From an uncultured Verrucomicrobiae bacterium (GTDB lineage: Bacteria; Verrucomicrobiota; Verrucomicrobiia; Chthoniobacterales; JAATET01): DNA of 64,000 nt. The stretch covers positions 224,001-288,000 of the forward strand of contig CAVRCI010000001.1 in NCBI GenBank assembly GCA_963719495.1, read 5' to 3'. The translations under genes and the position numbers were made by a program. The notes under the pieces are model-generated. The model ran no database searches, was not told the DNA's origin, and saw only the letters and a program-made list of their open reading frames with translations. Position 1 is the stretch's first letter. Each line of letters starts with the position of its first letter. Below, piece by piece: positions 5,515 to 45,025 of this stretch.

Positions 5515-6489
5515 TCAATCCCCGTATCCGGTCGGATTCTTCAAGTGCCACGCCCAGGCGCTTTCGATGATTTTCCGGATATCCTGATACTTGGGTTCCC
5601 ACCCGAGTTCGGCGCGGATTTTGTCCGAAGCGGCGATCAAGCGCGGCGGATCGCCAGCCCGGCGCGGCTTCTCCACGATCGGGATGTCCTTCCCGGAGAC
5701 CGCCCGGCACGTGTCGATGATCTCGCGCACCGACGTCCCACCACCGGTTCCCAGGTTGTAGAACGCGCTCTTCCCGGCATCGAGCGCCCGCATGTGCGCG
5801 TCGGCCAGATCGAAGATGTGAATGTAGTCGCGAATGCACGTCCCGTCGGGTGTGTCGTAATCCGTCCCGTAGATCTCCGCCGCCTGCTTCTGACCGAGCG
5901 CGACCTTGAGCACGTTCGGGATGAGGTGCGTCTCGATTCGGTGGTCCTCGCCAAATTTCTCGCTCGCCCCCGCCGCATTGAAATACCGCAACGCCACGAA
6001 CTTCAGATCGTGAATCTCGCCATACCAGCGCAGAATTTTTTCGAACAACAACTTCGACTCGCCGTAGGGATTGATCGGCACCTGCGGCAATGTCTCGTCG
6101 AGTGGCATCCGGTCCGGAATCCCGAAGGTCGCGCACGTCGACGAAAAGACGAGCCGCCGCACGTCGTTCGAGATCATGGCCTCGAGTAGATTGAGTCCGT
6201 GGCAGACGTTGTTGCGAAAATACTTCGCCGGATTCGTCATCGACTCACCGACCAGCGCGTTCGCCGCGAAGTGCATCACGGCGTCGGGCTTGTATTCCTG
6301 GATCGCGAGGCCGATCACCTTGGGGTCACTCAGGTCTCCCTCGAAAAAACGTGCCCGGGAATCGACCGCCTTCTGGTGACCTTCGGTGAGATTATCGAAG
6401 ACGCCGACCTTATGGCCCGCGTCTAGAAGCTGCTCCACGCAAATGCTACCAATGTAGCCCGCACCGCCCGTGACAAAAATTCTCTTCAT
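5515..6489 (-). CDS. galE: UDP-glucose 4-epimerase
   Basis: TGGAGYIGS, FSSTCA, YGESK (YxxxK), LRYFN, DGTCIRDYIH. Confidence 0.95.
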   Translation of the reverse strand: MKRIFVTGGAGYIGSICVEQLLDAGHKVGVFDNLTEGHQKAVDSRARFFEGDLSDPKVIGLAIQEYKPDAVMHFAANALVGESMTNPAKYFRNNVCHGLNLLEAMISNDVRRLVFSSTCATFGIPDRMPLDETLPQVPINPYGESKLLFEKILRWYGEIHDLKFVALRYFNAAGASEKFGEDHRIETHLIPNVLKVALGQKQAAEIYGTDYDTPDGTCIRDYIHIFDLADAHMRALDAGKSAFYNLGTGGGTSVREIIDTCRAVSGKDIPIVEKPRRAGDPPRLIAASDKIRAELGWEPKYQDIRKIIESAWAWHLKNPTGYGD

Positions 6490-26713: not shown

Positions 26714-27892
26714 ATGCCCACGCTCAACAAACAATTCCCGCGCCTCCTCCCGACCCCGGTCACCAGAAACCAGACCGCCGCCGACCTCATCGACGGCACG
26801 TTCAAAGCCTACAACGGCGCCCGCCTCGCCGAAGCCTGCCGACTCTTCTCCGACAAAATGCTCGAAGGCGACGGCACCGTCGGCATGTCGCTCACCGGTG
26901 CCCTCACCCCCGCTGGCCTCGGCAAATCCTGCCTCGTCCCGCTGCTCAAAGCCGGCTTCGTCGACTGGATCATCTCGACCGGCGCGAATCTCTACCACGA
27001 CCTCCACTACGGCCTCGGCATGGAACTCTTCGCCGGATCGCCCAACCTCGACGACATCGACCTCCGCCACGCCGGCGTCATCCGGATTTACGACGTCCTT
27101 TTCGATTACGACGTCCTCCTCGACACCGACGCCTTCGTCCGCCAGGTCATTCAAGGCCCCGAATTCCAACGCCCCCTGGGCACCGACGAATTCCACTTCC
27201 TCCTCGGCAAATACGTCCACGAGCGCGAGAAGACCCTCGGCATCTCCGAGCACAGCCTCCTCGCCGCCGCCTACAAATACCGCGTCCCCATCTTCACCAG
27301 CAGCCCCGGCGATTCCTCCATCGGAATGAACGTCGCCGCCATGTCGCTGCGCGATTCCAAGCTCAGCTTCGACGTCAACCGCGACGTCAACCAGACCGCC
27401 GCCATCGTCTACGACGCCAAATCCACCGGCGGCAAATCCAGCGTCTTCATCCTCGGCGGCGGCAGCCCAAAAAATTTCATGCTCCAGACCGAGCCCCAGA
27501 TCCAAGAGGTCATGGGCATCGAGGAGCGCGGCCACGACTACTTCCTCCAGTGCACCGACGCCCGCCCCGACACCGGCGGCCTCAGCGGAGCCACCCCCGG
27601 CGAAGCCGTCAGTTGGGGCAAGATCGACCCCGACTCCCTCCCCGACTGCGTCGTCTGCTACCTCGACAGCACCGTAGCCCTCCCCCTCATCACCTCCTAC
27701 GCCCTCAGCCGAACCAAGCCCCGCAAGCCCAAAAAACTCTACGACCGCCGCGACGCGATGCTCGAAGAGGTCCGCAAACAATACCTCAAAGTCGGCCAAG
27801 TCGACAAAGTCGCCCACCGCACGGACCTCAACAAAAAGAAAAAGCCCGCCCGCAACCTCGCCAAGCGAGCCAGCAGCGTCGGCGTCAAGTAA
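26714..27892 (+). CDS. Deoxyhypusine synthase-like protein (probable homospermidine synthase, SpeY type)
   Basis: [34 protein letters not shown] with catalytic Lys. Confidence 0.88.
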
Positions 27893-27967: not shown

Positions 27968-28840
27968 TCACTTCCCCCCAGCAGGATCGCAGACCTCCCG
28001 CAACGAATCCCCCACCACGTTCAGTGCCAGCAAAGTCGCCGTGAAAAAGAACGCCGGAAACAGCAGCAGCCAAGGGTAGATCTCCATCATCTCCGCCCCC
28101 TCCTTGATCAACGTCCCCCAGGAACTCAGCGGCGGCTGCGCCCCCAGTCCCAAAAAGCTCAAAAACGACTCGAGTAAAATAATCGAAGGCACGTTCAGCG
28201 TCGTGTAAGCGATCACCGGCCCAGCGATGTTCGGCAGGATTCCGCGCAGAAAAATCCGCGCCCGCCCCGCCCCCAGCGCCCGCGAAGCCAGCACGTAATC
28301 CAGCTTCCGCACCGCCATCACCTGCGACCGCACGATCCGCGCCGTCGTCATCCATTCCAGCGCGCCAATCGCCACGAACAGCAGGAAAAAACTCCGCCCG
28401 AACACCACCATCAGCAGGATCACGACCACCGCGAACGGCAGCGCGTAAAGCAGATCCACCACCCGCATCATCGCCGCGTCCACCCGACCGCCCGCGTATC
28501 CCGCCACCCCGCCGTAGATCACCCCGATCACCAACGACACCAGCGCCGCGCACACCCCGACCCCCAGCGAGATCCGTCCGCCCTCCAGCATCCGCGCCAG
28601 CTGATCCCGCCCCAGCACGTCCGTTCCCAACCAGTGATCCCACCGCGGCCCGACCGCCCCCAGTTCCAGGGTCTGCAACTTCGCCGCCTCCGGCAACCAC
28701 CACGGCCCGACGAGACAAGCCACGATCAACACCACCAGAAAACTCACCGACAGCGCAACCGTCGGCTGACGCAATGACCTCGCCCAGCCCGTCCAATTCT
28801 CACGATCCCGCGCCGCTTCCACCGCCACCCCCTCACCCAT
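27968..28840 (-). CDS. oppC: Oligopeptide ABC permease OppC-like
   Basis: HWLGTDVLGRD, ARIVRSQV, EAA-like loop, ESFLSFLGLG. Confidence 0.9.
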   Translation of the reverse strand: MGEGVAVEAARDRENWTGWARSLRQPTVALSVSFLVVLIVACLVGPWWLPEAAKLQTLELGAVGPRWDHWLGTDVLGRDQLARMLEGGRISLGVGVCAALVSLVIGVIYGGVAGYAGGRVDAAMMRVVDLLYALPFAVVVILLMVVFGRSFFLLFVAIGALEWMTTARIVRSQVMAVRKLDYVLASRALGAGRARIFLRGILPNIAGPVIAYTTLNVPSIILLESFLSFLGLGAQPPLSSWGTLIKEGAEMMEIYPWLLLFPAFFFTATLLALNVVGDSLREVCDPAGGK

Positions 28841-29747
28841 GACGCACGCGCGGGTTCAGCCCCGCCTGCGCGAGGTCGGCCAGAAAATTGAAGATCGAGA
28901 TCAGCGCCGCGTAAAAAAGCACCATCCCCAGCACCAGGGTGTAGTCCCGGTTCAGCGAAGCCGTGACGAAAAACCGCCCCAACCCCGGCACCTGAAAGAT
29001 CGACTCCACCACGAACGACCCCGTCAAGATTCCCGCCATCGCGGGCCCGAGATAAGCCACCACCGGCGACACCGCGAGCCGCATCGCGTGCTTCCAGACG
29101 AGCGTTCCCTCGCCGACCCCTTTCGCCCGCCCGCTCCGCACGTAGTTCTTCTTCAACTCCTCGACCAGCCCGCTCCGCATCAACCGCGCGACGTAGGCGA
29201 CGTAAGCCGCCGCCAGCGTGATCGACGGCAGAATCCGGTCCGCCGCGCTCCCCCAACCCGACGAATTCACGACCCCCAGCCAAAGCGCGAAAATCAAAAT
29301 CAGGACCGGCCCCACCACGAACGTCGGCAGACAAACCCCCAACGCCGACACCCCCATCGCCAGCCGATCCTTCCACGATCCCCGTCGAGTCGCCGCCCAG
29401 ATCCCCAGCGGAATCCCCACCCCCATCGCAATTAAGAGCGCCCACAGCCCCAACTCCAGCGACACCGGCAGCGCCTCCAGAATGATCTCGTTCACCGTCC
29501 GCCCCGGATATTTGAACGACGGCCCGAGATCGCCGCGCAGCAGATTCCCGAGGTATTGCCCGTATTGCGTGAGCAGCGGCTGATCCAATCCGTAGTGCGC
29601 CTCCAACTCCGCCAGTACCTCCGGCCGCACCGACCGGTCGTCGTCGAAGGGACCGCCCGGCGCCAGGCGAATGATGAAAAACGTGACCGTTGCCACGCCC
29701 CACAGCACCAGCAACATCGACGCAAAGCGTGCAACGAACATCCTCAT
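28833..29747 (-). CDS. oppB: Oligopeptide ABC permease OppB-like
   Basis: APGGPF, YGLDQP, GDLGPSF, RAKG, GSFVVESIF.VPGLG. Confidence 0.92.
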   Translation of the reverse strand: MRMFVARFASMLLVLWGVATVTFFIIRLAPGGPFDDDRSVRPEVLAELEAHYGLDQPLLTQYGQYLGNLLRGDLGPSFKYPGRTVNEIILEALPVSLELGLWALLIAMGVGIPLGIWAATRRGSWKDRLAMGVSALGVCLPTFVVGPVLILIFALWLGVVNSSGWGSAADRILPSITLAAAYVAYVARLMRSGLVEELKKNYVRSGRAKGVGEGTLVWKHAMRLAVSPVVAYLGPAMAGILTGSFVVESIFQVPGLGRFFVTASLNRDYTLVLGMVLFYAALISIFNFLADLAQAGLNPRVRHG

Positions 29748-29814
29748 GACCGCCATCCACCTTCGACTATCCGTCCCGCGTCGGACGACGCAAATCGCCG
29801 ACCCCACCCGCCGC

Positions 29815-31083
29815 TCACCGCCCGGCCCGCCGCCCGACGACCTCGCCCCGGCTCAGCTTGAGCAGCAGCATCGCGCTCATCTTCGCCCGCTCGGTCAAGC
29901 TCGGGACGAGCATGAACTCCTCGTCGCTGTGCAGATTCGCTCCCACCACGCCCAGACTGTCCAAAGTCGGCAACCCGACCGCCTGCAGCCGATTCCCGTC
30001 GCACGCCCCGCCCGTCGGAGCCCACGAGAGATCGACGCCGAACTCCCCACCGATCTCCGCCATCGCCTCGAGCAGCAGCCGCGTCCCCGCCGTCTCCGGC
30101 TTCGGCGAGCTCGAGAACTGCCCCAGCATTTCCACCCGACACCCGTCCGCTTCGTTGAGCACCCGCACGACCTCCGCCGCCCTCACCCGGAACCAATCCT
30201 CGTCCTCCGCCACCACCGTCCGCACGTTCACCAGACACGACGCCAACGCCGGCACGATGTTCGCCGCGCCGCCGCCCTGGATCTGCCCGACGTTCACCGT
30301 GAGTCCGTCCCGCCTCCCGTTGAGCCCGTCCAGCGCCGACACCAAGTGCGACAACAGACAAATCGCGTTCCGGCCCTTGTCGAAATCCCGCCCCGCGTGC
30401 GCCGCCTTCCCGTGCACGCGAAAGGTGAACGTCCCCGACCCTTTCCGCGCGCTCACCAACCCGCCGTCCGGCATCGAAGGCTCAAACACCAGCGCGACAT
30501 CGTGCCCCTCCGCGTGCCGCACCAACGACGGCTCGCTCCAAATCGACCCGATCTCCTCGTCGGGATTGAGAAAAACCGTCCACCCCAGCCCGCAGTCCGG
30601 CTCCACCATTCGCTCGAACGCTTCCAGCGCCGATAGCATTACCATCAGCCCCCCCTTCATGTCCGCCGTGCCCGGACCACGCAGCGTCTCACTCGTTCGC
30701 TCGGGCAGCTGAAACGGATCATCGGCTCCGAAAACCGTGTCGTAGTGTCCCACGAGCATCACCTGCAGGTCGGCGTCGGGCCGTTTGCGCACGGTCACGA
30801 TCCGCCGACTCCCCGCCGACAGCCGATCCCCCGATTCCTCCGACACCGCCGCCCCCATCTCTTCCTCCGCGACGACGCCTCCGAGCCGGTCGAAGCTCGC
30901 GGTCAATCGCCCGCGCATCGCGGCCAGCCCCGCCTCGTTCCAGCTGCCGGAATTGGTCCCGACCCACTCAGCCAACAGCTCGGCCCGCTCCGGTTCGACG
31001 GCTTCGAGCCGTCGAAGCTCACCAGCAAACACCCGCCCGGATAACGTTTCAGCCGTCGGCTCGGCGAGAGACTGCAACGACAC
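29815..31083 (-). CDS. M20 family amidohydrolase (carboxypeptidase G2/ArgE/DapE-like)
   Basis: GHYDTV, GPGTADMKGG, PDEEIGS, GKAAHAG, GGACDGN, G.NLHSDEE. Confidence 0.9.
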   Translation of the reverse strand: MSLQSLAEPTAETLSGRVFAGELRRLEAVEPERAELLAEWVGTNSGSWNEAGLAAMRGRLTASFDRLGGVVAEEEMGAAVSEESGDRLSAGSRRIVTVRKRPDADLQVMLVGHYDTVFGADDPFQLPERTSETLRGPGTADMKGGLMVMLSALEAFERMVEPDCGLGWTVFLNPDEEIGSIWSEPSLVRHAEGHDVALVFEPSMPDGGLVSARKGSGTFTFRVHGKAAHAGRDFDKGRNAICLLSHLVSALDGLNGRRDGLTVNVGQIQGGGAANIVPALASCLVNVRTVVAEDEDWFRVRAAEVVRVLNEADGCRVEMLGQFSSSPKPETAGTRLLLEAMAEIGGEFGVDLSWAPTGGACDGNRLQAVGLPTLDSLGVVGANLHSDEEFMLVPSLTERAKMSAMLLLKLSRGEVVGRRAGR

Positions 31084-31094
31084 CGCTCGAAACC

Positions 31095-31805
31095 TTAGTT
31101 CCCGCGTTGATCGGCGTTCGCCGGACGATCCGAGTCCTTCAAAAACGCACCGTGCCCGTCGAAGAAGACGTAGACCCGCCCGCCATTCACCGGCGCGTAT
31201 TCCTTGCCGTTCGGGAGTCCATTGTAATTCAGATTGTCGACGTCCGAAATCATCCAGATCTTGCTCAATCCCGAGGCGCTGAATCCGCGAGTCCCCTTCT
31301 CGTAATCCGCCGCAATGATCTGGATCGGATTCTTCGGCGGCGTTGTCGACCGCGACGAAGGGTAGCCGAAAAACCGCGCGGGTTCGGTCGTCGTCCGATT
31401 ATTCAACGCGAGCACGACCATATCCTTACTCACCTCCGCGGTCTTCGGGTTGCTCCCGATCCAGACGTTTTTCCGTTCTGGAATGTAGTCCGCAAGGAGA
31501 CGCCGCAGGTTTTTCTGCTGCTCCGACTCGGGTAGCAGACGCTCGTATTCGGGGGAGCTGATGAACGTCCAAGTCGGCCCAGGCAAGTGTCCGTTGTCGT
31601 TGGCGTACATCAGACACGCACCCGCAATGGTTCTTTGATTACTCAACGAACGCGTGATGTTTGCCGACGTGTTCATCTTGCCCACGACCGGGACCGCGAT
31701 CGCGGCCAGGATCGAGACAATGGACACGACGACCAGAATCTCGATGAGCGTGAAACCCCGGCTTGATGTCTCCACAGTTCGATTCCTTGGTTCGGCGATT
31801 CCCAT
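31095..31805 (-). CDS. Prepilin-type N-terminal cleavage/methylation protein with C-terminal H-X9-DG-like motif
   Basis: G|FTLIEILVVVSIVSILAAIAVP; C-terminal 'NGGRVYVFFDGH'. Confidence 0.9.
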   Translation of the reverse strand: MGIAEPRNRTVETSSRGFTLIEILVVVSIVSILAAIAVPVVGKMNTSANITRSLSNQRTIAGACLMYANDNGHLPGPTWTFISSPEYERLLPESEQQKNLRRLLADYIPERKNVWIGSNPKTAEVSKDMVVLALNNRTTTEPARFFGYPSSRSTTPPKNPIQIIAADYEKGTRGFSASGLSKIWMISDVDNLNYNGLPNGKEYAPVNGGRVYVFFDGHGAFLKDSDRPANADQRGN

Positions 31806-32623
31806 CAGGCAACCGTGATCCTCCGACGCATGACGAAGAATGCCAACAGCCCCAGCAGGCAGAGGGCGACCGTCCCGGGTTCCGGCACTGGCGCGGTCGT
31901 CAGCGTGATCGAGTCGATGTCCACGAAGCCGCCCGTTCCGTCGAAGCGCGTGGCGAGCTGGATCTCGCGGATCAGCAGATTGTCCTCGAACGCCGGATCA
32001 TCGATACTGAGAACCGATCCGATCGCGGTGAAGCCACTGCCATCGTCGAATTCCAACCCGTAAGTCTTGGCGTCCAGATTCACGGTGAGCCGGAAGACGA
32101 TGGGCGACGACAGGGTCAGCCCGAGAATCAGATCATCCGCGCTCGAATTATCGAACCCGGTGTCCGAGAAAGACCCCACTCCCACGTCCGCGCTCCCGAC
32201 GTCGAATTGGAAACCCGCGATGATCACCGCGGCGGGGTCGTCGTTGATGAGCGTAAAGCCCAATCGCGGACTCGACGTGCCGAAGTCCCAGCTACTCACG
32301 GTCACGTCCAGCGTGACGAAGCCGCTTGTGATGTCGGAGCCACCGTTCACCAGCGCGTAGGATCGGATCCCCCCCGTGCCGAAATCAACACCGCCGATCG
32401 TCAAACTCCCGATCCCGTCCGTCGCGACCCCCGTGATGTCGGAATCGAATCCGATTCCGCCGGGTGCGCTGTTGGTCACGCTCGTCAGCCCCGTCCCACT
32501 CGCTTCGTCGAATTGAAAACTGTCGACGACGGTCTGCGCCCGCGCCCCGTGAGTCGCCAGCCCGAGAGCCAGGGTGGCGATACCGAGAATCCCGGCGGCC
32601 ATTCGATTGATTGAATTCTTCAT
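31805..32623 (-). CDS. PEP-CTERM sorting domain surface protein
   Basis: Signal peptide; C-terminal VPEP + TM + RRR. Confidence 0.93.
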   Translation of the reverse strand: MKNSINRMAAGILGIATLALGLATHGARAQTVVDSFQFDEASGTGLTSVTNSAPGGIGFDSDITGVATDGIGSLTIGGVDFGTGGIRSYALVNGGSDITSGFVTLDVTVSSWDFGTSSPRLGFTLINDDPAAVIIAGFQFDVGSADVGVGSFSDTGFDNSSADDLILGLTLSSPIVFRLTVNLDAKTYGLEFDDGSGFTAIGSVLSIDDPAFEDNLLIREIQLATRFDGTGGFVDIDSITLTTAPVPEPGTVALCLLGLLAFFVMRRRITVA

Positions 32624-32718
32624 GATGTGTTGGTTGGTATTTTTTTGTCCCCAGCCCGCGAACGATTGACCCGCCCCCGGTTTTGATGCCGCGAGTCTCG
32701 CCGATCAGCGAGATTCGT

Positions 32719-32740
32719 CCATACGCCGAAGGTCGTATAT
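32719..32740. promoter_or_regulatory. Candidate operator ccATACGccgaaggtCGTATat
   Basis: ATACG-N8-CGTAT dyad between divergent PEP-CTERM and LuxR genes; 19/22 match to 38002-38023. Confidence 0.7.
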
Positions 32741-32782
32741 GGGCGGCTGACAGATCCGACCCTCGTTGCTAGGCTTCCCGCG

Positions 32783-33931
32783 ATGAAGCGCGCGGCGGCA
32801 GCTCACGAGTCCTTCGACCGACTCTACGATCACCTGCTCGCCCTGCACGGGGCGAACGACGTTCGTCCGCTCTGGAAAGCGATGCGCGACCTCCTCCTCG
32901 CCGCCGCCCCCAGCCACCGGGTCACCCTCTTCCTCGGCCACATCGGCATGGGCGACGCCCGCATGGTCTTCACCGACCCGCCCATCGAGAACGCCGCCAA
33001 ATGGTACGCCGACCGCGGCAAAGACAGTCCCTTCAACGGCTTCATCATCAAAAACCGGAAGCTCAAGCACTACCTGTTCAGCGACATTCTCCCGCCGCGC
33101 GCCGAGTTCCTCAAAACCCCTTTCGCCCGCCGCGTCGCGAAAGCCGAAGGCTGGGACAAGGGCGCCTCCTTCCTCTTCTGGGACAAAACCGGCGTGAAGG
33201 CGATGTTCAGCCTCTACCGATCCGCCCGCCAACCCGAGTTCACCGAAGGTGAGATCGCCCTCCTCCGTCGGCTCTACCCCTTCCTCGAGATCGCCATCGA
33301 CCGCGTCGCGCACACCCAAAGCGAACGCCAACACCGCCGCGGCCTCGAGGACTTCAACAAACGCATTCCCATCGGCCTCATCCTCCTCGACTGGGAACTC
33401 CGCCCACTCTTCGCCAACGAGGAAGCCCAGCAAAAGTGCCTCCTCTGGCAGCAGGGCTCGGACGATTCCCGCGCCTTCAATGCCCGGGAAGTGTTCGCCG
33501 TCCCCGACGAACTCGTCTCCGCCTGCGAGCAAGTGAAAGACCGCTTCATCGTCGAGGCGATGAAAGCCAGCCCCGACGCCGACTCCGTCCAATCCAGCGT
33601 CATGCACCCGACCGTCCCCGGCCTCAAAGCCACCGTCTCGATGGTCAGCCGCGCCGCCTCCAGCATCGCAAAACCCCGCCTCCTCATCCTCATCGAACAC
33701 CGCGCGACCTCCGCCGAACTCCGCGGCCGCGACGATGCCAAGGTCGCCCTCCTCGCCCGGCTCACGCCCTCGGAGAAGGAACTCGTCGAACACGTCTGCC
33801 GCGGCCTCAGCAACCAGGAACTCGCCGACCACCTCCACAAAAGCATCCTCACCGTGAAGACGCAGCTCACCAGCATCTTCCAGAAACTCAACGTCCCCAA
33901 CCGGGGCCGCCTCATCTCGCTGCTCAAATAA
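32783..33931 (+). CDS. LuxR-type C-terminal HTH transcriptional regulator with N-terminal sensor domains
   Basis: 'LTPSEKELVEHVCRGLSNQELA..L.KSILTVKTQLTSIFQKLNV.NR'; no receiver domain. Confidence 0.9.
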   Translation: MKRAAAAHESFDRLYDHLLALHGANDVRPLWKAMRDLLLAAAPSHRVTLFLGHIGMGDARMVFTDPPIENAAKWYADRGKDSPFNGFIIKNRKLKHYLFSDILPPRAEFLKTPFARRVAKAEGWDKGASFLFWDKTGVKAMFSLYRSARQPEFTEGEIALLRRLYPFLEIAIDRVAHTQSERQHRRGLEDFNKRIPIGLILLDWELRPLFANEEAQQKCLLWQQGSDDSRAFNAREVFAVPDELVSACEQVKDRFIVEAMKASPDADSVQSSVMHPTVPGLKATVSMVSRAASSIAKPRLLILIEHRATSAELRGRDDAKVALLARLTPSEKELVEHVCRGLSNQELADHLHKSILTVKTQLTSIFQKLNVPNRGRLISLLK

Positions 33932-35246
33932 ATTCGAACAACTCCCCGAGCTGCAGGATACCACCCAGCTCGACCAGCGCCCGCCGCGATTCCTCGCCCA
34001 ACGCCGGGTCCGCCAAGTCCGCCGGCCGCAATTCCTCACGGTAATTCCGCGTCACCCAATCGACCAACTCCCCGTCGAGCGCCGGATTGAAAAGCACCCG
34101 CCCACGCACGCGGTTCAACTCCTTTTCAGTCAGAACGACCCGCAGCCGCAGACAAGCCGGCCCGCCCCCGTTCGACATGCTCTGCCGCAAATCCAGGTAG
34201 CGGACTTCCGCCAGCGGGCAAGCCGGATCCGCCACCAACCGCTCGATCAGCGACCGCACGGAATCCGATTCCCGGCATTCCATCGGAGCAATGAGCGCCA
34301 TCCCCGCTTCATCGCGAAGGTCGACGATCTGACCATTGAACAAATAACTCGCCACCGCCTCCTCCAGCGACACCTCCGCGTTCGCCACGACCCGCACCCG
34401 CAAGTCGTCGCACGTCGCCCGCTCGCCAAAGACGGTCCGCAATTCCGTGCACACCGCGTGCGTCCCCTCGAACGCGCTCTCGTGACACAGGAAAAAAGAC
34501 CGGTTGCCCGTCGAGATCACGTCGTTGTGAAAAACCCCAGCGCCGATCGCCGAAGCATTCTGCCGCGCCAGGACGACGGTTTCTGGATCCAACCGATGCA
34601 AACGCGCCACGGCCAGACTCGCCTCCCGACCCTGCCGCGCCCCGGCGAGCCCGCCTCCGTGCACGAAAAGATGAATCCCCCGCTCCCCGTGCGCGTCCCC
34701 GTGCCCGCACAGCCTCACGTGATTCGCCGCCCCCTCGTCGCCAAATTCCGCGCACGCCGGCAGCGCGTCGTGAACCACGAAACACTCACCGTCCGCAAAG
34801 ATCGCCCGCAACACCCGGGTCGAAAACTCCGTCTCCAACGACCGATGCAGGTGCGACGCCAGGTTGGCCGGCGTCAGATGCACCCGCCCGTCCGCCGTGT
34901 CCGCCGACGGCGCGACCGTCGCGAGATTCGCCGCCCACATCGCCGATGCCGACGAGGCCGCCGCGAGAACATGAGGGGCAACGTCCGCCGCTTCCGCCGC
35001 CGAGCCAAAACCCAACCGCCGCAGCGCCTCCAGCGACGGCCGCGGGTGCGGCGGCAGCACCGCCTGCCGCACCCCCATCCCGTGCAGCAGCCTCATCTTC
35101 GCCAATCCCTCGAGCGCCGCCGCCCTTGGATGCGAGACCTGCCGCCGATGCGCCCGCGAGGCGTTGTTCCCCGCCGACAACCCCGCGAAATTATGCGTCG
35201 GCCCCGGCAGCCCGTCGAAGTTCACCTCGTAAGACCGCTCGATCAT
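33924..35246 (-). CDS. astB: N-succinylarginine dihydrolase
   Basis: EVNFDGL.GPTHN.AGLS.GN.AS, SSASAMWAAN, GDEGAANH, GVFHNDVI, SMSNGGGPACLRLRV. Confidence 0.95.
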   Translation of the reverse strand: MIERSYEVNFDGLPGPTHNFAGLSAGNNASRAHRRQVSHPRAAALEGLAKMRLLHGMGVRQAVLPPHPRPSLEALRRLGFGSAAEAADVAPHVLAAASSASAMWAANLATVAPSADTADGRVHLTPANLASHLHRSLETEFSTRVLRAIFADGECFVVHDALPACAEFGDEGAANHVRLCGHGDAHGERGIHLFVHGGGLAGARQGREASLAVARLHRLDPETVVLARQNASAIGAGVFHNDVISTGNRSFFLCHESAFEGTHAVCTELRTVFGERATCDDLRVRVVANAEVSLEEAVASYLFNGQIVDLRDEAGMALIAPMECRESDSVRSLIERLVADPACPLAEVRYLDLRQSMSNGGGPACLRLRVVLTEKELNRVRGRVLFNPALDGELVDWVTRNYREELRPADLADPALGEESRRALVELGGILQLGELFEFI

Positions 35247-36256
35247 CGCAACGCCACCCAGCTCACCACGTCGCCCACCCCGACCTCCAGCGCCGCCGCC
35301 GTCGGACCGTCCAACCACACGTCCGCCCCGTCCACCTCGAGCAACCCCGTCGTCACGCGGAAATCCAGCCGCCCGTTCGCCACCATCCATTCGCTCCCGC
35401 CCGCGATCTCCCTCACCCCAGCCAGTCGTCCACACCGCCGCTCCCGCACCGTCCGAACCTCGTCCACCTTCGCCGACAGCAACGGACCACCGTCGAAGAT
35501 ATCCACCCGCTCCCAAAACCGAAATCCCTCCCACTCCAACAAAGACCGCGCCGGCCGCGTTTCCACGTGCACCTGCCCAATGGCCGCCCGCGCGTCGTCC
35601 GGCAACAAAAACGCGTACACCGGATGCTGCGGCATCAGATCCGCGATGAACGTCTTGTTCCCGATCCCGCTCTGAAAATCCGCGGACCGAAAATCCGAAT
35701 TGAAAAAATGCGACCCCACCGCGTTCCAAAACGGCGCGCCCGTCTCCCGGTCCGACACCCCCCGCATCTCCGAGATCACCACCCCCTCGAACCGCTCGCG
35801 AAACGCCGCCAGGAACAAAAACCGCCCCAGCGACAGCAACCGCCCGCGCCCCCCGCCCCGCGACTTCGGCCGCAGATACAGCGAACAAATTTCCGAAGGC
35901 CCGCTGTGCTCCCGCACCAGATGCAGCACCTCGAAGTCCCGCGCCACCGCGAGCGCGTCGTGCCGGTGCGTCTCCCGCCGGATCTCGTAGGTGTAGAACG
36001 GATCGAATCCCCCGACCTTCGCCGCGATCCCCGACACCCCGAGCAACTCCCCCGACCCCGCGTCCTCCAGCCCGAAGAGATAGACCTGATCCCCCGGCCG
36101 CGTCACCCCCCGGCGGAACGCGTGCACCGACTCCGCCACCCGTCCCGCCAGAAAATCCTCGTCGTCCGGCAGGCTCGTCAGCGCGCACGGCTCCCGCCGC
36201 ACCATCTCCACGATCCCCCCCAGATCGCTTTCGCAAACCGGCCTCACGACCCCCAT
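35243..36256 (-). CDS. astA: Arginine N-succinyltransferase
   Basis: LTSLP, EICSLYL, GRLLS.GRFLF, SEMRG, PFW, F.ADLMP.HP.Y, DIFDGGP; overlaps astB start. Confidence 0.93.
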   Translation of the reverse strand: MGVVRPVCESDLGGIVEMVRREPCALTSLPDDEDFLAGRVAESVHAFRRGVTRPGDQVYLFGLEDAGSGELLGVSGIAAKVGGFDPFYTYEIRRETHRHDALAVARDFEVLHLVREHSGPSEICSLYLRPKSRGGGRGRLLSLGRFLFLAAFRERFEGVVISEMRGVSDRETGAPFWNAVGSHFFNSDFRSADFQSGIGNKTFIADLMPQHPVYAFLLPDDARAAIGQVHVETRPARSLLEWEGFRFWERVDIFDGGPLLSAKVDEVRTVRERRCGRLAGVREIAGGSEWMVANGRLDFRVTTGLLEVDGADVWLDGPTAAALEVGVGDVVSWVALR

Positions 36257-36366: not shown

Positions 36367-37968
36367 TCATCGCGCAAACGGCACTGGCACCAGACTCAGC
36401 TGCTTCAGCCGCCGGTCGTTGTAAGGCGTCCCCCGCCACCCCGCGACCGCCGGTTGTTTGAGGATCACCTGCGTCGTGTAGAAAATCGGGATCGCCGGCA
36501 GTTCCCGTAAAAATTCCCGCTCCGCCTCGATAAAAAACTCCGCCCGCTCCCCCGCGTTCCCCTCCGCCTGCGCCTTCGCAATCCACCCGTCGAACGTCGC
36601 GTCGCTCCACCCCGCCTCGTTGAAATGATTCCCCGTCGTCCACGCCCCCAGAAAAAATTGCGGATCCTGAAACGTCGCCGCGTTCCAGCTCCCCCGCGCC
36701 AGGTCGAACCGCCCCGCGTTCTTCGTCGCGATCAGCACGCGCGTCTCCTGACTCGATATCTCGACCTCGATCCCCAGATTCTTCCGCCACATCTCCTGCA
36801 CCACCTCCGCGATCAACCGGTGCGGCGCCCGCCCGTCCACCAGGATCTCCACCGACCTCAGCCCCTTCCCGCCCGGATACCCCGCCTCCGCCAGCAACCG
36901 CCGCCCCTCCGCCACGTCATACCGCAGCACCCGCGGCGGGTCGTAACCCGGCATCCCCGGCGGACTGAACGACTCCGCCGCCCGCTTCCCACCCCGCAGC
37001 ACGTATTTCACCAGCGCCGCCCGGTCAATCGTCAGCGACAACGCCCGCCGCAACCGCACGTCGTCGAACGGCGGCCGCGTCACGTTCACCGTGTAAAAAT
37101 AAATCCCGAAATCCTCCAGCGTCTGGATCCACTCCGGATACTTCTCCTCGTAGAGCGCGATCTTCTGCGGCGGCACCGAACTCGTCAGATGCAGCTGCCC
37201 GCTCCGAAACGCCGATTCCTCGGTCGTCGAATTCTCGATCGGCAAAAACGTCACCCCGTCCAGCGCGACGTTCGCCGCGTCCCAATACTCCGCGTTCTTC
37301 GTCACGATCACGTGCTTGTTCGGCGTCCACTCGCTCAGCCCGAACGGCCCGTTCCCCACCAGGGTCCCCGCCCGCGCCCACCCCGTCCCCCGCTCGTCGA
37401 TCCGCCCATACGCCTCGATGTTCGCCCGCTGCACCGGATAGAATTGCATCAGCGCCGACAGAAAAAACGGCGCGGGTTGCGTCAGCTCCATCTCCACGAT
37501 CCCCGGCTCCGGCGACCGAATCCCCACCTCGCCAAAATCCGTGACCGTCCCCTCCTGATAAGCCGAAGCGTTCCGCACGAACGCCAGAGTGTCCTCCACT
37601 TGATACGACCCCAGCTTCGGCGACAAAATCCGCCGCGCCGAATAGAGAATGTCCTCCGCCGTCAACGGCGACCCGTCGCTCCACCGCGCGTCCTCCCGGA
37701 TGTGAAACCGATACGTCAACCCGTCCGCCGACACCGTCCACCGATCCGCCACCCCCGGAGCCGGTTCCAAGGTCACCGGATCCGCCACCACCAAACCCTC
37801 GAAGAGCGCGCCGATGATCGTCCACTCCGCCGCTCCGCGAACGAGATAAGGGTCCAGCGACTCCGGCTCCGTCGAGTTCCCCTTGATCAGCATTTGCTCC
37901 CCCGCCAAACCCCACGACCCCGCCCCCGCGATCAGCAGAACACCAAGCCATTGCGAAACGAACTTCAT
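36367..37968 (-). CDS. oppA: Peptide ABC substrate-binding protein (family 5, OppA-like)
   Basis: EPESLDP, LFEGL, WSDG.PLTAED, GNGPF, PPFDDVRLRRALS. Confidence 0.92.
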   Translation of the reverse strand: MKFVSQWLGVLLIAGAGSWGLAGEQMLIKGNSTEPESLDPYLVRGAAEWTIIGALFEGLVVADPVTLEPAPGVADRWTVSADGLTYRFHIREDARWSDGSPLTAEDILYSARRILSPKLGSYQVEDTLAFVRNASAYQEGTVTDFGEVGIRSPEPGIVEMELTQPAPFFLSALMQFYPVQRANIEAYGRIDERGTGWARAGTLVGNGPFGLSEWTPNKHVIVTKNAEYWDAANVALDGVTFLPIENSTTEESAFRSGQLHLTSSVPPQKIALYEEKYPEWIQTLEDFGIYFYTVNVTRPPFDDVRLRRALSLTIDRAALVKYVLRGGKRAAESFSPPGMPGYDPPRVLRYDVAEGRRLLAEAGYPGGKGLRSVEILVDGRAPHRLIAEVVQEMWRKNLGIEVEISSQETRVLIATKNAGRFDLARGSWNAATFQDPQFFLGAWTTGNHFNEAGWSDATFDGWIAKAQAEGNAGERAEFFIEAEREFLRELPAIPIFYTTQVILKQPAVAGWRGTPYNDRRLKQLSLVPVPFAR

Positions 37969-38001
37969 CCGCCCCGACCCTACCCGATCCCGAGCCCCCG
38001 C

Positions 38002-38023
38002 CCATACACCGAAGGTCTGATAT
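38002..38023. promoter_or_regulatory. Candidate operator ccatacaccgaaggtctgatat
   Basis: Lies between divergent oppA and cyanophycinase genes; 19/22 match to 32719-32740. Confidence 0.7.
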
Positions 38024-38081
38024 CCCACCCCCACCGCCGAATATCTTCGCTCCCCCCGCACCCCCCGCCAAAGATCATCGC

Positions 38082-39065
38082 GTGAAATCCACTCTCATCC
38101 TCGTGCTCACCACCGGACTCGCCACCATGAACGCTATGACCGCCCGCACCGCCACCTCAACCGAATCGACCGGCCCCGACTACACCCTCTTCGAACTCGG
38201 TAATCCCGACGTCACCACGCCGACCACACCCGGCCTCCTCCTCATGGGCGGCGGCGGCGATGTCGACGAAGCCATCCGGTGGTTCATTCAGCAAGCCGGC
38301 GGCGGCGACATCGTCGTCCTTCGAGCCGGCGGCGGCGACGGCTACCAGGATTACTTCCACTCCGAAATCGGCGGCATCAATTCCGTCACCAGCATCGTCT
38401 TCGATTCCGAAAAACCTTCCTCCGACCCCGCCATCCTCGACCGCGTCGCCAAGGCGGAGGGCATCTTCATCGCCGGCGGCGACCAGGCCCGTTACTACCG
38501 ATTCTGGGCCGAAACCCCCCTCGCCGCCGCCATCACCAAACACCACGCCGACGGCAAACCCCTCGGCGGCACCAGCGCCGGCCTCGCCGTCCTCGGCGGC
38601 CAGTGCTACTCCGCCCGCAACGACACCGTCATCTCCAAGGAAGCCCTCGCCGACCCCTTCGACGACCGCGTCACCCTCGACCCCGGCATGTTCGACATCC
38701 CGATCATCGATCACCTCCTCACCGACTCCCATTTCAGCCAACGCGATCGCCTCGGCCGCCTCGTCACCTTCGTAGGCCGCCTCCGCGCCCAGACCCCGCC
38801 CATCGAGCTCATCGGAGTCGGCGTCGACGAGCGCACCGCCCTCTGCGTCGAAGCCGACGGCACCGCCAAAATCATCAGCCCGGACGAAGGCACCGTCACA
38901 CTGGTCAAGCTCACCACCCCCCCAAAGACCGTCGAACCCCAAAAGCCCCTGGAAGCCGAAGGCATCCAGATCCAAGTCCTCCCCACCGGCACCACCCTCG
39001 ACGTCGAAAGCCTCGACCAGCAATTCGAGAACACCCCCACCCAGACAGAAGCCGACCTGCAATAG
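38082..39065 (+). CDS. Secreted cyanophycinase-family serine peptidase (S51)
   Basis: Signal peptide, LMGGG, IAGGDQ, GGTSAG (Ser), DSHFSQRDRLGRL (His), GVDE (Glu). Confidence 0.85.
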   Translation: MKSTLILVLTTGLATMNAMTARTATSTESTGPDYTLFELGNPDVTTPTTPGLLLMGGGGDVDEAIRWFIQQAGGGDIVVLRAGGGDGYQDYFHSEIGGINSVTSIVFDSEKPSSDPAILDRVAKAEGIFIAGGDQARYYRFWAETPLAAAITKHHADGKPLGGTSAGLAVLGGQCYSARNDTVISKEALADPFDDRVTLDPGMFDIPIIDHLLTDSHFSQRDRLGRLVTFVGRLRAQTPPIELIGVGVDERTALCVEADGTAKIISPDEGTVTLVKLTTPPKTVEPQKPLEAEGIQIQVLPTGTTLDVESLDQQFENTPTQTEADLQ

Positions 39066-39266: not shown

Positions 39267-40655
39267 GTGACCCTCCTCGCCGCCGCCACCAGCACCGCCG
39301 CAGCCGCCAGCACCGCCGCCCCCCCCGCGCTCCCGATGATCCTCATCGGCGGAGTCCTCATTCTCACGTTCATTGCCATCGCGTTCGAGCTCGTCCACAA
39401 AAGCCTCGCCGCCCTCGCCGGAGCCATCGTCGCCGTCATTCTCGCCCTCTCGCTCGGCGTCTTCCCGGGAGAAAAGCCCTACGAGACCGTCTACAACTTC
39501 ATCGGCCACGACCTCGGCGTGATCGGCGTCATCGTGGGCACCAGCATCCTCGTCGGCATCACCGCGAAGTCCGGCCTCTTCCACTTTATCGCCATCAAGC
39601 TCGTCAAGCTCACCCACGGCAAACCCGCCCTCCTCCTCCCCGCTGTGATGGTCGCCACCATCGGCTTCGTCACCTTTCTCACCATCGCGCCCGGCGTCCT
39701 CATCATGACGTCCCTCGTCCTCGTCATCACCAAATCACTCGGCTACAAGCCCGTGCCCTACATCATGGTCGTCGCCATCGGCGCGAACTCCGGCGCGCTC
39801 ATGACCTTCGCCTCCGGCATCCCGACGCTCATGATCGGCACCAGCGCCGGCATCCCCTACGTCGACTTCCTCCTCGTCTCCACCCCGCTCGCCATCCTCT
39901 CCGCCGTCCTCGCGTTCTTCGTCATCCGCTTCTCCTACCGCAAGGACCTCGTCGCTCTCGGAGATCCGATCGAGCGCCGCGAGAAGGTCGCGCAGTTCGA
40001 CGAATGGGCGCTCGTGAAAGACCGCTCCATTTTTGCCCGCTGCGCGGTCATCCTCGGCTTCACCATCCTCGGATTCGCCTTCGCCCAGCAGCTCGGCGTC
40101 GGCCTCGACTTCATCGCCTTCTGCGGAGCCGCCGCCGCCCTCCTCTTCTCCGGCTTCGACACCGAGGACGCCATCCGCGCCGTCAAGTGGCCGATCATTC
40201 TCTTCTTCGTCGGCCTCTTCGTCCTCATCGGCGCCGTCCGCGAGACCGGGCTCCTCGAGATCCTCGCCCAACAAATTTTCCTCATCTCCGGCACCAACGT
40301 CTTCATCGCCATCGTCATCCTCGTTCCGTTCGTTTTCATCACCGCCGGCATCGTCGACAACATCCCCGTCGCCGCCACGATGATCCCCATCACCAAGTCC
40401 ATGATCGCCTCCGGCCTTCCCGCCGAGCCGCTCTGGTGGGCTCTCATCGCCGCCAGCAACCTCGGTGGCAATCCAACCCCGGTCGGTTCCATCGCCGCCG
40501 TCATCGCCCTCCACGCCCTCGAAAAAGAGCGCGGCATCACGATCGGCTGGGGTGAATACCTCAAGGTCGGCGGCCTCGTCACCCTCCTCCAGATCCCCCT
40601 CGTCGTCGGCTACTTGGAACTCTATCGCTGGCTCGACCTCTTCCCAAAACTGTAA
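39267..40655 (+). CDS. ArsB/NhaD/SLC13-like ion transporter (IT superfamily)
   Basis: About 11-12 TMs, 'GIVDNIP', 'NLGGNPTPVGSIA'. Confidence 0.85.
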   Translation: MTLLAAATSTAAAASTAAPPALPMILIGGVLILTFIAIAFELVHKSLAALAGAIVAVILALSLGVFPGEKPYETVYNFIGHDLGVIGVIVGTSILVGITAKSGLFHFIAIKLVKLTHGKPALLLPAVMVATIGFVTFLTIAPGVLIMTSLVLVITKSLGYKPVPYIMVVAIGANSGALMTFASGIPTLMIGTSAGIPYVDFLLVSTPLAILSAVLAFFVIRFSYRKDLVALGDPIERREKVAQFDEWALVKDRSIFARCAVILGFTILGFAFAQQLGVGLDFIAFCGAAAALLFSGFDTEDAIRAVKWPIILFFVGLFVLIGAVRETGLLEILAQQIFLISGTNVFIAIVILVPFVFITAGIVDNIPVAATMIPITKSMIASGLPAEPLWWALIAASNLGGNPTPVGSIAAVIALHALEKERGITIGWGEYLKVGGLVTLLQIPLVVGYLELYRWLDLFPKL

Positions 40656-40685
40656 CGCGAGCTTCCCGCTTGCACCCATCCGCTC

Positions 40686-41516
40686 ATGAACGACGCCAAC
40701 GACCGCGACATCGACGACAACATGGACCGCTTCGAGGCCGCCTCGTCGGCCCGTGCCATCACCCTGCCCACCATCGACCTGACCCGCATCCTCCTCGCTC
40801 TCGACGGGTCCAATCAGGACACCCCCGCCCGCGATCTCGCCGAGCGTTTCGAAGCAACGATCTCAACCGCCAGCCTCGACTCCGACGACTCACCCCACCG
40901 CCAGATCCTCGATCAGTGCCGCGAATCCGGCAGCGACCTTATCGTCGTCCCCGCCCCCTTCCGCGAGGACTTCGCCGAGCTCGGAGCCGCCAGCATCGGG
41001 TCGAATCTCGACCGCCTCCTCAGCCAACGCGACACCCCCCTCCTCGTCGTGCGCGACCCCGACCGCGCCAGCGAGAACCTCACCCGCGAGATCGTCCTCC
41101 CGCTTTCCTTCGTCGCCGCCGAAGACATCCGCGCCGCGGCCTGGGCCTTCCGCACCCTCGCCCCCGGTGGGCGCATCCGCATCCTTGCCGTCGTCGACAC
41201 CGAACATCTCGTCCGCGACCACAGGCTCGAAGGCGGTGCCCTCGACGTCGAGGACCTTGAGGAATTCGACCTCGCCGGACTCGATCAACCCGGGATGGCC
41301 GGCCTCATCGCCGCCGTCCAACGTCACGCCGCCGAGAACGACGTCGGCTGCCGGGTCAGCATCCGCGTCGGTGCCACGGTCAAAGCCACCGCCGAATTCG
41401 CCAACGCCCAGCCCTGCATCCTGGCCGTCACCTGCCCCCTCGACGACACCGACCCCGCCTACGCCGACGTCCACAGCCTCACCCGCCAAAGCCGCAATCC
41501 GGTCCTGATCGTTTGA
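40686..41516 (+). CDS. Tandem universal stress protein-like protein
   Basis: 'RILLALDGS', 'DLIVV', 'IGSNLDRLL...TPLLVV', C-terminal 'NPVLIV'. Confidence 0.75.
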   Translation: MNDANDRDIDDNMDRFEAASSARAITLPTIDLTRILLALDGSNQDTPARDLAERFEATISTASLDSDDSPHRQILDQCRESGSDLIVVPAPFREDFAELGAASIGSNLDRLLSQRDTPLLVVRDPDRASENLTREIVLPLSFVAAEDIRAAAWAFRTLAPGGRIRILAVVDTEHLVRDHRLEGGALDVEDLEEFDLAGLDQPGMAGLIAAVQRHAAENDVGCRVSIRVGATVKATAEFANAQPCILAVTCPLDDTDPAYADVHSLTRQSRNPVLIV

Positions 41517-43985: not shown

Positions 43986-44783
43986 TCACAAAGTCGGCAC
44001 CGCGGCCAGCAATTTGCGGGTGTATTCGTCCTTCGGATCCCGGTAAATCTCCTCCGCCGAAGCGCTCTCCACCACCCGGCCCCGGTTCATCACCAGCACG
44101 TGATCGCTGATGTGCTCCACGACGGCGAGGTCGTGCGCGATGAACAAATACGCGATCCCGTATTGCTCCTGGAGGTCCTGAAGAAGATTCACGATCTGCG
44201 CCTGCACGCTCACGTCCAACGCGCTCACCGGTTCGTCGCACACGATGAACTTTGGCTCCACGGCCAGCGCCCGGGCGATCCCGATCCGCTGCCGTTGTCC
44301 GCCGCTGAACTCGTGCGGATACCGTGCCATCATTTCGCCCTTGAGCCCCACCTTCTCGAGCAACTCCGCGACCCGCGCCCGGCGATCCTTCGCCTTCATC
44401 GATCGAAAATGCACCTCCAACGCTTCGCCCACGATCGTCCCGATCGTCATCCGCGGATTCAGCGATCCAAACGGATCCTGAAAAATCATCTGCATCTCCC
44501 GCCGCAGCGGCCGGAACGCGCTCTCGCTCAGCGGCAGGATCTCGCGTCCCTGGTATCGGACGGAACCCGACGTCACCTCGTTCAGCTTGAGCACGGCCCG
44601 CCCCACGGTCGTCTTCCCGCTCCCGCTCTCGCCGACCAGCCCGACCGTCTGCCCCGGCTTCACGACAAAACTCACGCCGTCGACGGCCTTCACCTCACCG
44701 ATCCGACGCCGCAGCAGCCCACCAAGCACCGGGAACCACACCCGCAGGTCGGTCACTTCCAAAAGAGGCGTCGCGTCGTCCAT
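43986..44783 (-). CDS. Peptide ABC transporter ATP-binding protein (OppF/DppF-like)
   Basis: [36 protein letters not shown]. Confidence 0.93.
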
Positions 44784-45025
44784 CGGAGAAAGAGCTAAGT
44801 CGCGACGCCCCGAAAACGCAAGCCACCCGCTTGCGCGTCCCCCATCGGGTGTGATCGAAAGCGGGTCCGGACCGGAAGAAGAATCTCGTGAACGCCACGA
44901 ACGTCTGACCGAGGGGACGACAGGAGGCTGTCGACGAGTCCGTGGGAGATCGCCACGGTCCAAGGCCTCGCAGCATCGGGTCTCCCGCCTCATCTAGACG
45001 CCCCCCCCAATTCCCGCGGAGTCTC

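Follow-up and report, generated by a model that had tools for sequence, protein, structure and literature searches.

An M20 metallohydrolase clade as candidate non-orthologous replacement of succinylglutamate desuccinylase in arginine succinyltransferase gene clusters

Background

In the arginine succinyltransferase (AST) pathway, encoded by the canonical astCADBE and aruCFGDBE operons, the last step is the hydrolysis of N-succinyl-L-glutamate by AstE (AruE; TIGR03242), an enzyme known from E. coli and Pseudomonas that has an M14-like AstE/AspA fold. A 64-kb stretch of the genome of an uncultured Verrucomicrobiae bacterium (the window, G000:C1:224001-288000, within which all positions below are given unless a contig is named; the whole genome, G000, comprises 4.54 Mb in 16 contigs and is 98.62% complete) contains orthologues of astA and astB, and the first two steps would accordingly have the same chemistry as in the canonical operons, but the genome has no orthologue of astC, astD or astE that scores over the cut-off. 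In place of a canonical operon, the window has an astA-astB-M20 cassette, interrupted by an insert and with peptide-importer genes on either side. The product of the third gene, an M20 di-zinc metallohydrolase of the aminoacylase or carboxypeptidase G2 (CPG2)-like type, is predicted to have the reaction and the pathway slot of AstE, from which it differs in fold.

Better characterized enzymes resemble the M20 enzyme in part. CPG2 of Pseudomonas sp. shares its fold and metal ligands but cleaves folates and is not found in any AST context, and the window enzyme fails the CPG2-like model NF004788. DapE (N-succinyl-LL-diaminopimelate desuccinylase) and ArgE (N-acetylornithine deacetylase) have the same fold and dimerisation domain, and remove succinyl or other acyl groups from N-acyl amino acids, the kind of reaction predicted here, but their context is biosynthetic whereas that of the window enzyme is catabolic. 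ArgZ/AgrE, the cyanobacterial arginine dihydrolase, converts arginine to ornithine, two NH3 and CO2 in one step without succinyl-CoA, which is the net reaction of one of the alternatives weighed below. CphZ (AotO) is described as a homologue of AstE and a dedicated beta-Asp-Arg hydrolase, a relative of succinylglutamate desuccinylase whose gene is next to that of an importer in bacteria without cyanophycin synthesis; its discoverers consider beta-Asp-Arg to resemble N2-succinylarginine strongly, and CphZ is reported to be inactive on N2-succinylarginine (PMC9974463). The context of the M20 gene in the window is similar to that of CphZ, but the CphZ fold is AstE/M14-like, not M20, and a beta-Asp-Arg activity of the window enzyme is hypothetical.

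The M20 clade in arginine succinyltransferase operons

The M20 family represented in the window is most likely a non-orthologous succinylglutamate desuccinylase, because its genes belong to AST operons, its distribution excludes that of AstE, and it co-occurs with AstB; from sequence and gene context, a probability of about 0.6 is assigned to the prediction that this clade replaces AstE as the terminal desuccinylase of the AST pathway and that the window enzyme serves in succinyl removal. A genome scan with one genome per species yielded 80 loci encoding proteins 40-48% identical to the window M20, and astA is near the M20 gene in 69 of these and astB in 60, the commonest layout being M20-astA-(1.5 kb)-astB on a single strand. 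Among eight annotated loci, the order M20-astA-astD-astB is found in four (Caulobacter, Thalassospira, Kordiimonas and Marinobacterium), M20-aminotransferase-astA-astD-astB in two deltaproteobacterial metagenome-assembled genomes (MAGs), and M20-astA-astB in one; at locus L103 the annotation gave only astA and astD, and the M20 gene and astB were found there by the genome scan. AstE was found within none of the eight. In a wider set of 166 loci, which includes 80 metagenome loci, astA and astB occur together at 95, of which 89 also have an AstD-like gene (scored at >300 bits).

The relationship with AstE was assessed within the order around Marinobacterium, from which 201 genomes were drawn evenly; a class-wide sample had been dropped, AstB being present in just 7 of its 151 genomes. 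With M20 called over its cut-off and AstE at an E value of 1e-20 or better, the 62 AstB-bearing genomes of the order divide into 25 with M20 only, 36 with AstE only, none with both, and one (G317) with neither. Zero overlap with a single gap is the pattern predicted by non-orthologous displacement. One of the AstE genomes (G437) has an additional M20 relative that scores below the cut-off (289 bits). AstE was detected in one of 40 M20-bearing genomes, and true AstD in 38 of 41 such genomes.

Within the window's own order, 61 genomes (including that of the window) were compared, and M20 and AstB are present in an identical set of six. The genes astA-astB-M20 are contiguous in four of these (G026, G040, G027 and G065), all of which possess true AstD: astD directly follows the M20 gene in G026 and G040, and is located elsewhere in the genome in G027 and G065. 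In G026, a gene for an ArgD-family transaminase follows astD, forming a five-gene operon, astA-astB-M20-astD-argD, of which M20 is the sole hydrolase. No full-length AstE/AspA domain was found in the five cassette-bearing relatives of G000. Conservation of astA-astB-M20 as a cassette extends across the order to which the window belongs. The initial annotation had placed the M20 enzyme in an arginine route: its tie to astAB is borne out by the six shared genomes and the four contiguous cassettes, and desuccinylase chemistry was a guess of the right kind, but the wider evidence favours as the substrate N-succinylglutamate, in the last step of a complete pathway.

Replacement of AstE by the M20 clade is, on this reading, widespread, and no description of it was found in print; the literature, supplements not covered, yielded no paper that assigns the NF005602/PRK07338 M20 clade to the AST pathway. 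If the assignment is correct, this family is the missing last enzyme of the pathway and an annotation gap is closed. The M20 enzyme is present in 25 of the 62 genomes with AstB in one large order, approximately 40%, and in six out of six in the window's order, and pathway tools that recognize only AstE would score the AST pathway as incomplete in organisms of the M20 type.

Identity of the M20 enzyme

The window M20 scores 445.4 bits against NF005602/PRK07338 (residues 34-415 of 422; curated cut-off 357), a family whose members are presently named just "hydrolase" or "glutamate carboxypeptidase". The second-best match, the CPG2-like model NF004788, is under its cut-off (189.6 bits versus 349), and the DapE and ArgE models give at most 89 bits, far under theirs. 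The closest solved structure is carboxypeptidase G2 (1CG2; E value 2.7e-26, 26% identity), and the residues expected of the M20 fold as metal ligands and catalytic glutamate (H113, D141, E176/E177, E201 and H385) are aligned with HxD, D, EE, E and H of 1CG2 and are invariant in 120 homologues. An AF2 model built on these 120 homologues (predicted local distance difference test score 94.7) retrieved CPG2 in first rank when compared by Foldseek (template modelling scores 0.77/0.83), followed by PepT and DapE, with PahZ2 at rank 32. CPG2 cleaves N-acyl-L-glutamates, the bond type of N-succinylglutamate, and a desuccinylase role would fit the M20 fold because CPG2-like enzymes hydrolyse such substrates. 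A metagenome scan recovered no relative more than 51% identical to the window M20.

Organization of the locus

Genes of the window were identified from long open reading frames (ORFs) and scans against the Pfam and NCBIfam families. Those of the locus and its surroundings are as follows, SBP denoting a periplasmic substrate-binding protein and ABC an ATP-binding cassette transporter.

26714-27892, plus strand: homospermidine synthase, convergent to dppC
27968-28840, minus strand: Opp/Dpp-type ABC permease, DppC/OppC-like (NF011935, 257 bits; PF00528)
28833-29807, minus strand: Opp/Dpp-type ABC permease, DppB/OppB-like, first gene downstream of M20 (NF007008, 308 bits; PF00528)
29815-31083, minus strand: M20 metallohydrolase, 422 residues (NF005602, 445 bits; PF01546 and PF07687)
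31095-31805, minus strand: prepilin-type N-methylation protein (TIGR02532/PF07963)
31805-32623, minus strand: PEP-CTERM protein (NF038129, 28.8 bits)
32783-33931, plus strand: LuxR/GerE-type regulator (PF00196), C-terminus like that of EpsA, a PEP-CTERM-associated regulator (51.7 bits)
33924-35246, minus strand: astB, N-succinylarginine dihydrolase, 440 residues (PF04996, 553 bits; NF009789, 550 bits, cut-off 452)
35243-36256, minus strand: astA, arginine N-succinyltransferase, 337 residues (PF04958, 375 bits; TIGR03243, 353 bits, cut-off 284)
36367-38061, minus strand: family-5 (Opp/Dpp-type) SBP, directly upstream of astA (PF00496, 296 bits)
38082-39065, plus strand: secreted S51 peptidase, cyanophycinase-like, 327 residues (PF03575; TIGR02069, 103.5 bits)
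43986-44993, minus strand: lone OppF/DppF-like ABC ATPase (NF011659, 328 bits)

The initial annotation had described astA and astB as coupled and an M20 gene as present in the same stretch; the coding regions of the former pair (36256-35243 and 35246-33924) indeed overlap, the ATG of astB and the TGA of astA sharing the sequence ATGA, and the M20 gene (31083-29815) is matched to its family. The annotated interval, 29815-36256, runs from the stop of M20 to the start of astA. AstA reaches 331 bits on the stricter AstA equivalog model, under its cut-off of 391, and AstB reaches 518 bits on TIGR03241, slightly under the cut-off of 538; the AstB translation contains a GGGPAC motif. The best NCBIfam match of the SBP is OppA (287 bits, well under its cut-off), and from its translation the true start is probably the methionine of MKFVSQW... 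near position 37968. The M20 gene is 2.8 kb from astB, and the genes of the LuxR-type regulator and of the PEP-CTERM and prepilin-like proteins intervene. The latter two are co-directional with the M20 gene, with gaps of 0-11 bp (the prepilin gene is 11 bp upstream of M20), and transcription of M20-dppBC from a PEP-CTERM/prepilin promoter may occur. The LuxR-type regulator is probably outside the pathway, and the lone OppF-like ATPase at 43986-44993 is a possible energiser of the importer.

One congener (G008) has the S51, SBP, astA, astB, LuxR, PEP-CTERM, prepilin, M20, dppB, dppC and homospermidine synthase genes arranged as in the window, and its OppF-like ATPase is in the same neighbourhood; identity between the copies is 80% for astA, 84% for the SBP, 91% for dppB, and 94% for both the OppF-like ATPase and homospermidine synthase. 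M20 and AstB are absent from four other congeners, which have just 47-49% identical paralogues of DppB, an orthologue being found in G008 only; the island is therefore accessory within the genus. The gene order that flanks the three-gene insert suggests a once-continuous SBP-astA-astB-M20-dppB-dppC unit. Ratios of nonsynonymous to synonymous substitution (dN/dS) between G000 and G008, which are rough figures given composition bias, are 0.24 for astA, 0.27 for astB, 0.19 for M20, 0.48 for S51 and 0.17 for the SBP. The astA, astB and M20 genes are intact and under purifying selection, and are maintained rather than decaying.

Elsewhere in the window, strand composition is very strongly biased between positions 6000 and 22000 (calculated per 2 kb, GC skew is -0.30 to -0.48 and AT skew reaches +0.37), and this bias gives rise to long spurious ORFs, rich in proline, arginine and histidine, in several frames. 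At 39267-41516, between the S51 and radical-SAM genes of G000, are genes for a CitMHS/ArsB-family transporter and a 276-residue protein, neither of which was matched in the equivalent region of G008, and a recent insertion or deletion is suggested.

Missing genes and the middle steps

Absences were evaluated by profile searches of the whole genome. The initial annotation had observed that astC, astD, astE and recognizable isoaspartyl peptidases (IadA, IaaA, CphZ/AotO) were missing, and this extends from the window to the genome: a search of all of G000 for astC, astD, astE, iadA and iaaA found none. AstE (PF04952), IaaA-type Asparaginase_2 (PF01112) and IadA (TIGR01975) have no matches in G000; the best scores for astC and astD orthologues are 340 bits (cut-off 610) and 260 bits (cut-off 579), respectively; and matches of cyanophycin synthetase (CphA) in G000 are only at the level of Mur ligases. 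The catalytic domain of AstE, AspA and CphZ (PF24827) has a single partial match in G000, at 37 bits over positions 5-69 of 192, in a 512-residue M14-like protein (G000:C7:112654) that was rejected as an AstE or CphZ; its relatives of known structure are the uncharacterised metallopeptidases 2QVP, 3IEH and 3B2Y.

The astD gene has been lost in G000 and in G008, its one cassette-bearing congener, and the four other cassette-bearing relatives have true AstD. In these two congeners astA, astB and M20 are kept under selection, and if the main reading is right the loss of astD would be a natural test of how far the AST pathway can be shortened or re-wired. The best match of the astC model in G000 is an ArgD-family transaminase (TIGR00707, 420 bits, cut-off 410), from which AstC activity could plausibly be provided. 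There are seven aldehyde dehydrogenase family genes in G000, of which six are GabD, methylmalonate-semialdehyde dehydrogenase, three BADH/aminobutyraldehyde-like enzymes and an MdlD-like enzyme. The seventh encodes a 466-residue enzyme (G000:C1:295176-296573), approximately 7 kb beyond the window, whose top matches are the pair of AstD models, at 282 and 260 bits and in each case under the cut-off, and is the best candidate, as judged by sequence, to substitute at the AstD step. It was rejected as a dedicated AstD replacement, its distribution not tracking the cassette, and is retained as a candidate only.

In the route predicted for this bacterium, AstA would succinylate arginine, and AstB would convert the product to N2-succinylornithine with release of two NH3 and CO2. 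N2-succinylornithine would then be transaminated, likely by ArgD, and the semialdehyde oxidised by a non-orthologous aldehyde dehydrogenase, possibly the 466-residue enzyme just described, leaving the M20 enzyme to hydrolyse N-succinylglutamate to glutamate and succinate. Arginine probably arrives as imported arginine-containing peptides, because the cassette is situated among the S51, SBP and Opp/Dpp permease genes, and beta-Asp-Arg from cyanophycin would be a plausible source.

Several observations weigh against the assignment of the M20 enzyme to the last step of such a pathway. An AstD orthologue is found in neither G000 (best score 260 bits) nor G008 (256 bits), against the cut-off of 579, so that the two middle steps would have to rest on non-orthologous enzymes, and the 466-residue dehydrogenase is distributed independently of the cassette, being found in 19 of the 61 relatives (a count that takes in the unpublished genome G021) and, within the same family, in 14 of 16 genomes. 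In the window, three unrelated genes lie between astB and M20, which instead shares an operon with the permeases. Residue 218, in an R-K-G-S-G-N motif, is asparagine at 143 of the 166 loci and threonine in G000 and G008. The Fisher p of 2e-16 for the mutual exclusivity of M20 and AstE overstates the case, the genomes being kin, and an enzyme assay for any member of the clade was not found in the literature.

Cyanophycinase-like neighbour

The S51 peptidase encoded upstream of the SBP has as its best matches of known structure the cyanophycinases 3EN0, 7UQW and 7UQV (E values 1e-16 to 1e-12). When aligned with CphB (3EN0), it retains GTSAG, D-S-H-F-x-x-R-x-R-x-x-R-L (with three arginines) and G-V-D-E, which correspond to the Ser-His-Glu catalytic motifs and the arginine-rich substrate motif of CphB. 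On the cyanophycinase equivalog TIGR02069 it scores 103.5 bits, under the cut-off of 126.6. Its N-terminus looks by eye like a signal peptide, from which secretion is predicted. With the signal-peptide methionine taken as the start of the SBP, the S51 gene and SBP-astA-astB diverge across approximately 110 bp. A second architecture joining S51 to the AST/M20 cassette is found in two sister-clade metagenome contigs (L165:8844-14966 and L178:4176-7374), where the gene for an S51 peptidase with a signal peptide overlaps the start of M20 by four bases and astA-astD(-astB) follows; in L178, the contig has a frameshift that splits the S51 gene. S51 is near M20 in just four of the 166 loci.

Alternative roles of the M20 enzyme

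That M20 is a general peptidase or N-acyl-amino-acid hydrolase serving the Dpp-type importer, and only incidentally close to astAB, would be in keeping with its operonic position with dppB-dppC, three genes away from astB, and with locus L098, where a clade member comes after SBP-dppBCDF and an o-succinylbenzoate synthase (OSBS)-like enolase with astAB not nearby. Such a coincidence is highly improbable in view of the perfect co-occurrence of AstB and M20 (six out of six among the 61 genomes of the order), the contiguity of astA-astB-M20 in four relatives, and a gene order around the insert that fits a once-continuous SBP-astA-astB-M20-dppBC. A different fate for the product of AstB was proposed in the initial annotation: in a three-step shunt, the M20 enzyme would desuccinylate N2-succinylornithine directly, without AstCDE, and arginine would be converted to ornithine, two NH3 and CO2, with one succinyl-CoA spent. 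The structural neighbours of the enzyme include N-acyl-ornithine deacylases of the M20 fold, for example ArgE, and astD is missing from G000 and G008, the two genomes of the genus that have the cassette, as well as from G005, an unrelated genome in which locus L071 reads M20-astA-astB; the residue at position 218 is not asparagine in any of these (threonine, threonine and serine, respectively), and purifying selection implies that the shortened gene set is in use. However, position 218 is also occupied by other residues (T, T, V, G, K and I) in six of the 89 operons that hold astD, including that of the sister-clade contig L165, and the clade coexists with astD in 89 of 95 operons, in which a succinylornithine desuccinylase would make astD pointless. 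Nor is a catabolic outlet for ornithine evident in G000: ornithine cyclodeaminase and the arginase/agmatinase family were not found there, RocD over the cut-off was not found among its six class-III aminotransferases, and its PF02784 decarboxylases are LysA and SpeA only, which leaves no ornithine decarboxylase of that fold (the SpeC type, PF01276, was not searched). The release of ornithine by direct desuccinylation is therefore disfavoured, and such a shunt is judged rather unlikely.

The cyanophycinase-like neighbour lends some context to another possibility, also named in the initial annotation, that the M20 enzyme cleaves imported beta-Asp-Arg, alone or besides desuccinylation, in the place of IadA, IaaA or CphZ. 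A beta-Asp-Arg activity would be reasonable for an M20-fold analogue of AstE by analogy with CphZ, itself an AstE homologue whose substrate is likened to N2-succinylarginine (PMC9974463). G000 lacks IadA, IaaA and a full AstE/CphZ domain; the S51 peptidase best matches solved cyanophycinases, keeps their motifs and appears by eye to be secreted; the island of S51, SBP, astAB, M20 and dppBC is common to G000 and G008 only and missing in the four other congeners; S51 and M20 overlap by four bases in the two sister-clade contigs; and PahZ2 (7LJH), an M20 poly-aspartate hydrolase of beta-aspartyl links, is the structural neighbour at rank 32. Against this, S51 is scarce near M20 (four of 166 loci), the clade-bearing AST operons of most lineages have neither a cyanophycinase nor a peptide transporter, the S51 score falls short of the cyanophycinase equivalog cut-off, and exclusivity with AstE argues that desuccinylation is the ancestral role; a dipeptidase role, predicted from sequence and context, is unlikely. 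By an extension of it that is equally doubtful, the island would be a cyanophycin-scavenging module with a cut-down, AstD-less AST route, in which S51 would free beta-Asp-Arg, the Opp/Dpp importer would take it up, and one M20 enzyme would stand in for CphZ and AstE alike, either by splitting beta-Asp-Arg itself or, if AstB accepts beta-Asp-Arg as a natural N2-acyl-arginine, by cleaving the product. If M20 is the AstE replacement, as on the main reading, the island, like the S51-M20-astA-astD contigs of the sister clade, would tie extracellular cyanophycin breakdown to arginine catabolism in bacteria that have neither cyanophycin synthesis nor a known isoaspartyl dipeptidase, extending the view of cyanophycin as a widely scavenged source of nitrogen.

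Variation among loci of the clade

Residue 218 was considered as a specificity switch and rejected, since it is not asparagine in six of 89 astD operons and varies throughout the sister clade (166 loci and tree); in two other astD-less genomes it is tyrosine or aspartate. The biosynthetic arginine decarboxylase SpeA of G000 is encoded at G000:C7:65672-69424, and putrescine is presumably made from arginine by the agmatine route.

At locus L098 (2345-11212, from a deltaproteobacterial MAG), genes for a regulator, an SBP, dppB, dppC, dppD, dppF and an enolase-superfamily protein are followed by that of the clade M20, which has aspartate at position 218. The enolase passes the low-GC/archaeal OSBS model, to whose family N-succinylamino acid racemases also belong; astAB are not near the M20 gene, and the genome is without AstD. 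This context fits a view of the clade chemistry as that of a general N-succinyl-amino-acid desuccinylase.

In another deltaproteobacterial MAG (L024:15264-16623), astB is present as two overlapping ORFs of 246 and 215 residues, a frameshift or assembly error in an M20-aminotransferase-astA-astD-astB operon that is otherwise complete. A Desulfobacterales MAG (L031:11290-13473) has a 727-residue ORF in which an AstA domain at the N-terminus, matched over 250 of the 336 positions of the model, is joined to PAS sensor domains; it is located beside a histidine kinase gene and downstream of an M20 gene whose product has tyrosine at position 218; it may encode a sensor built on the AstA fold, or may be a misassembly.

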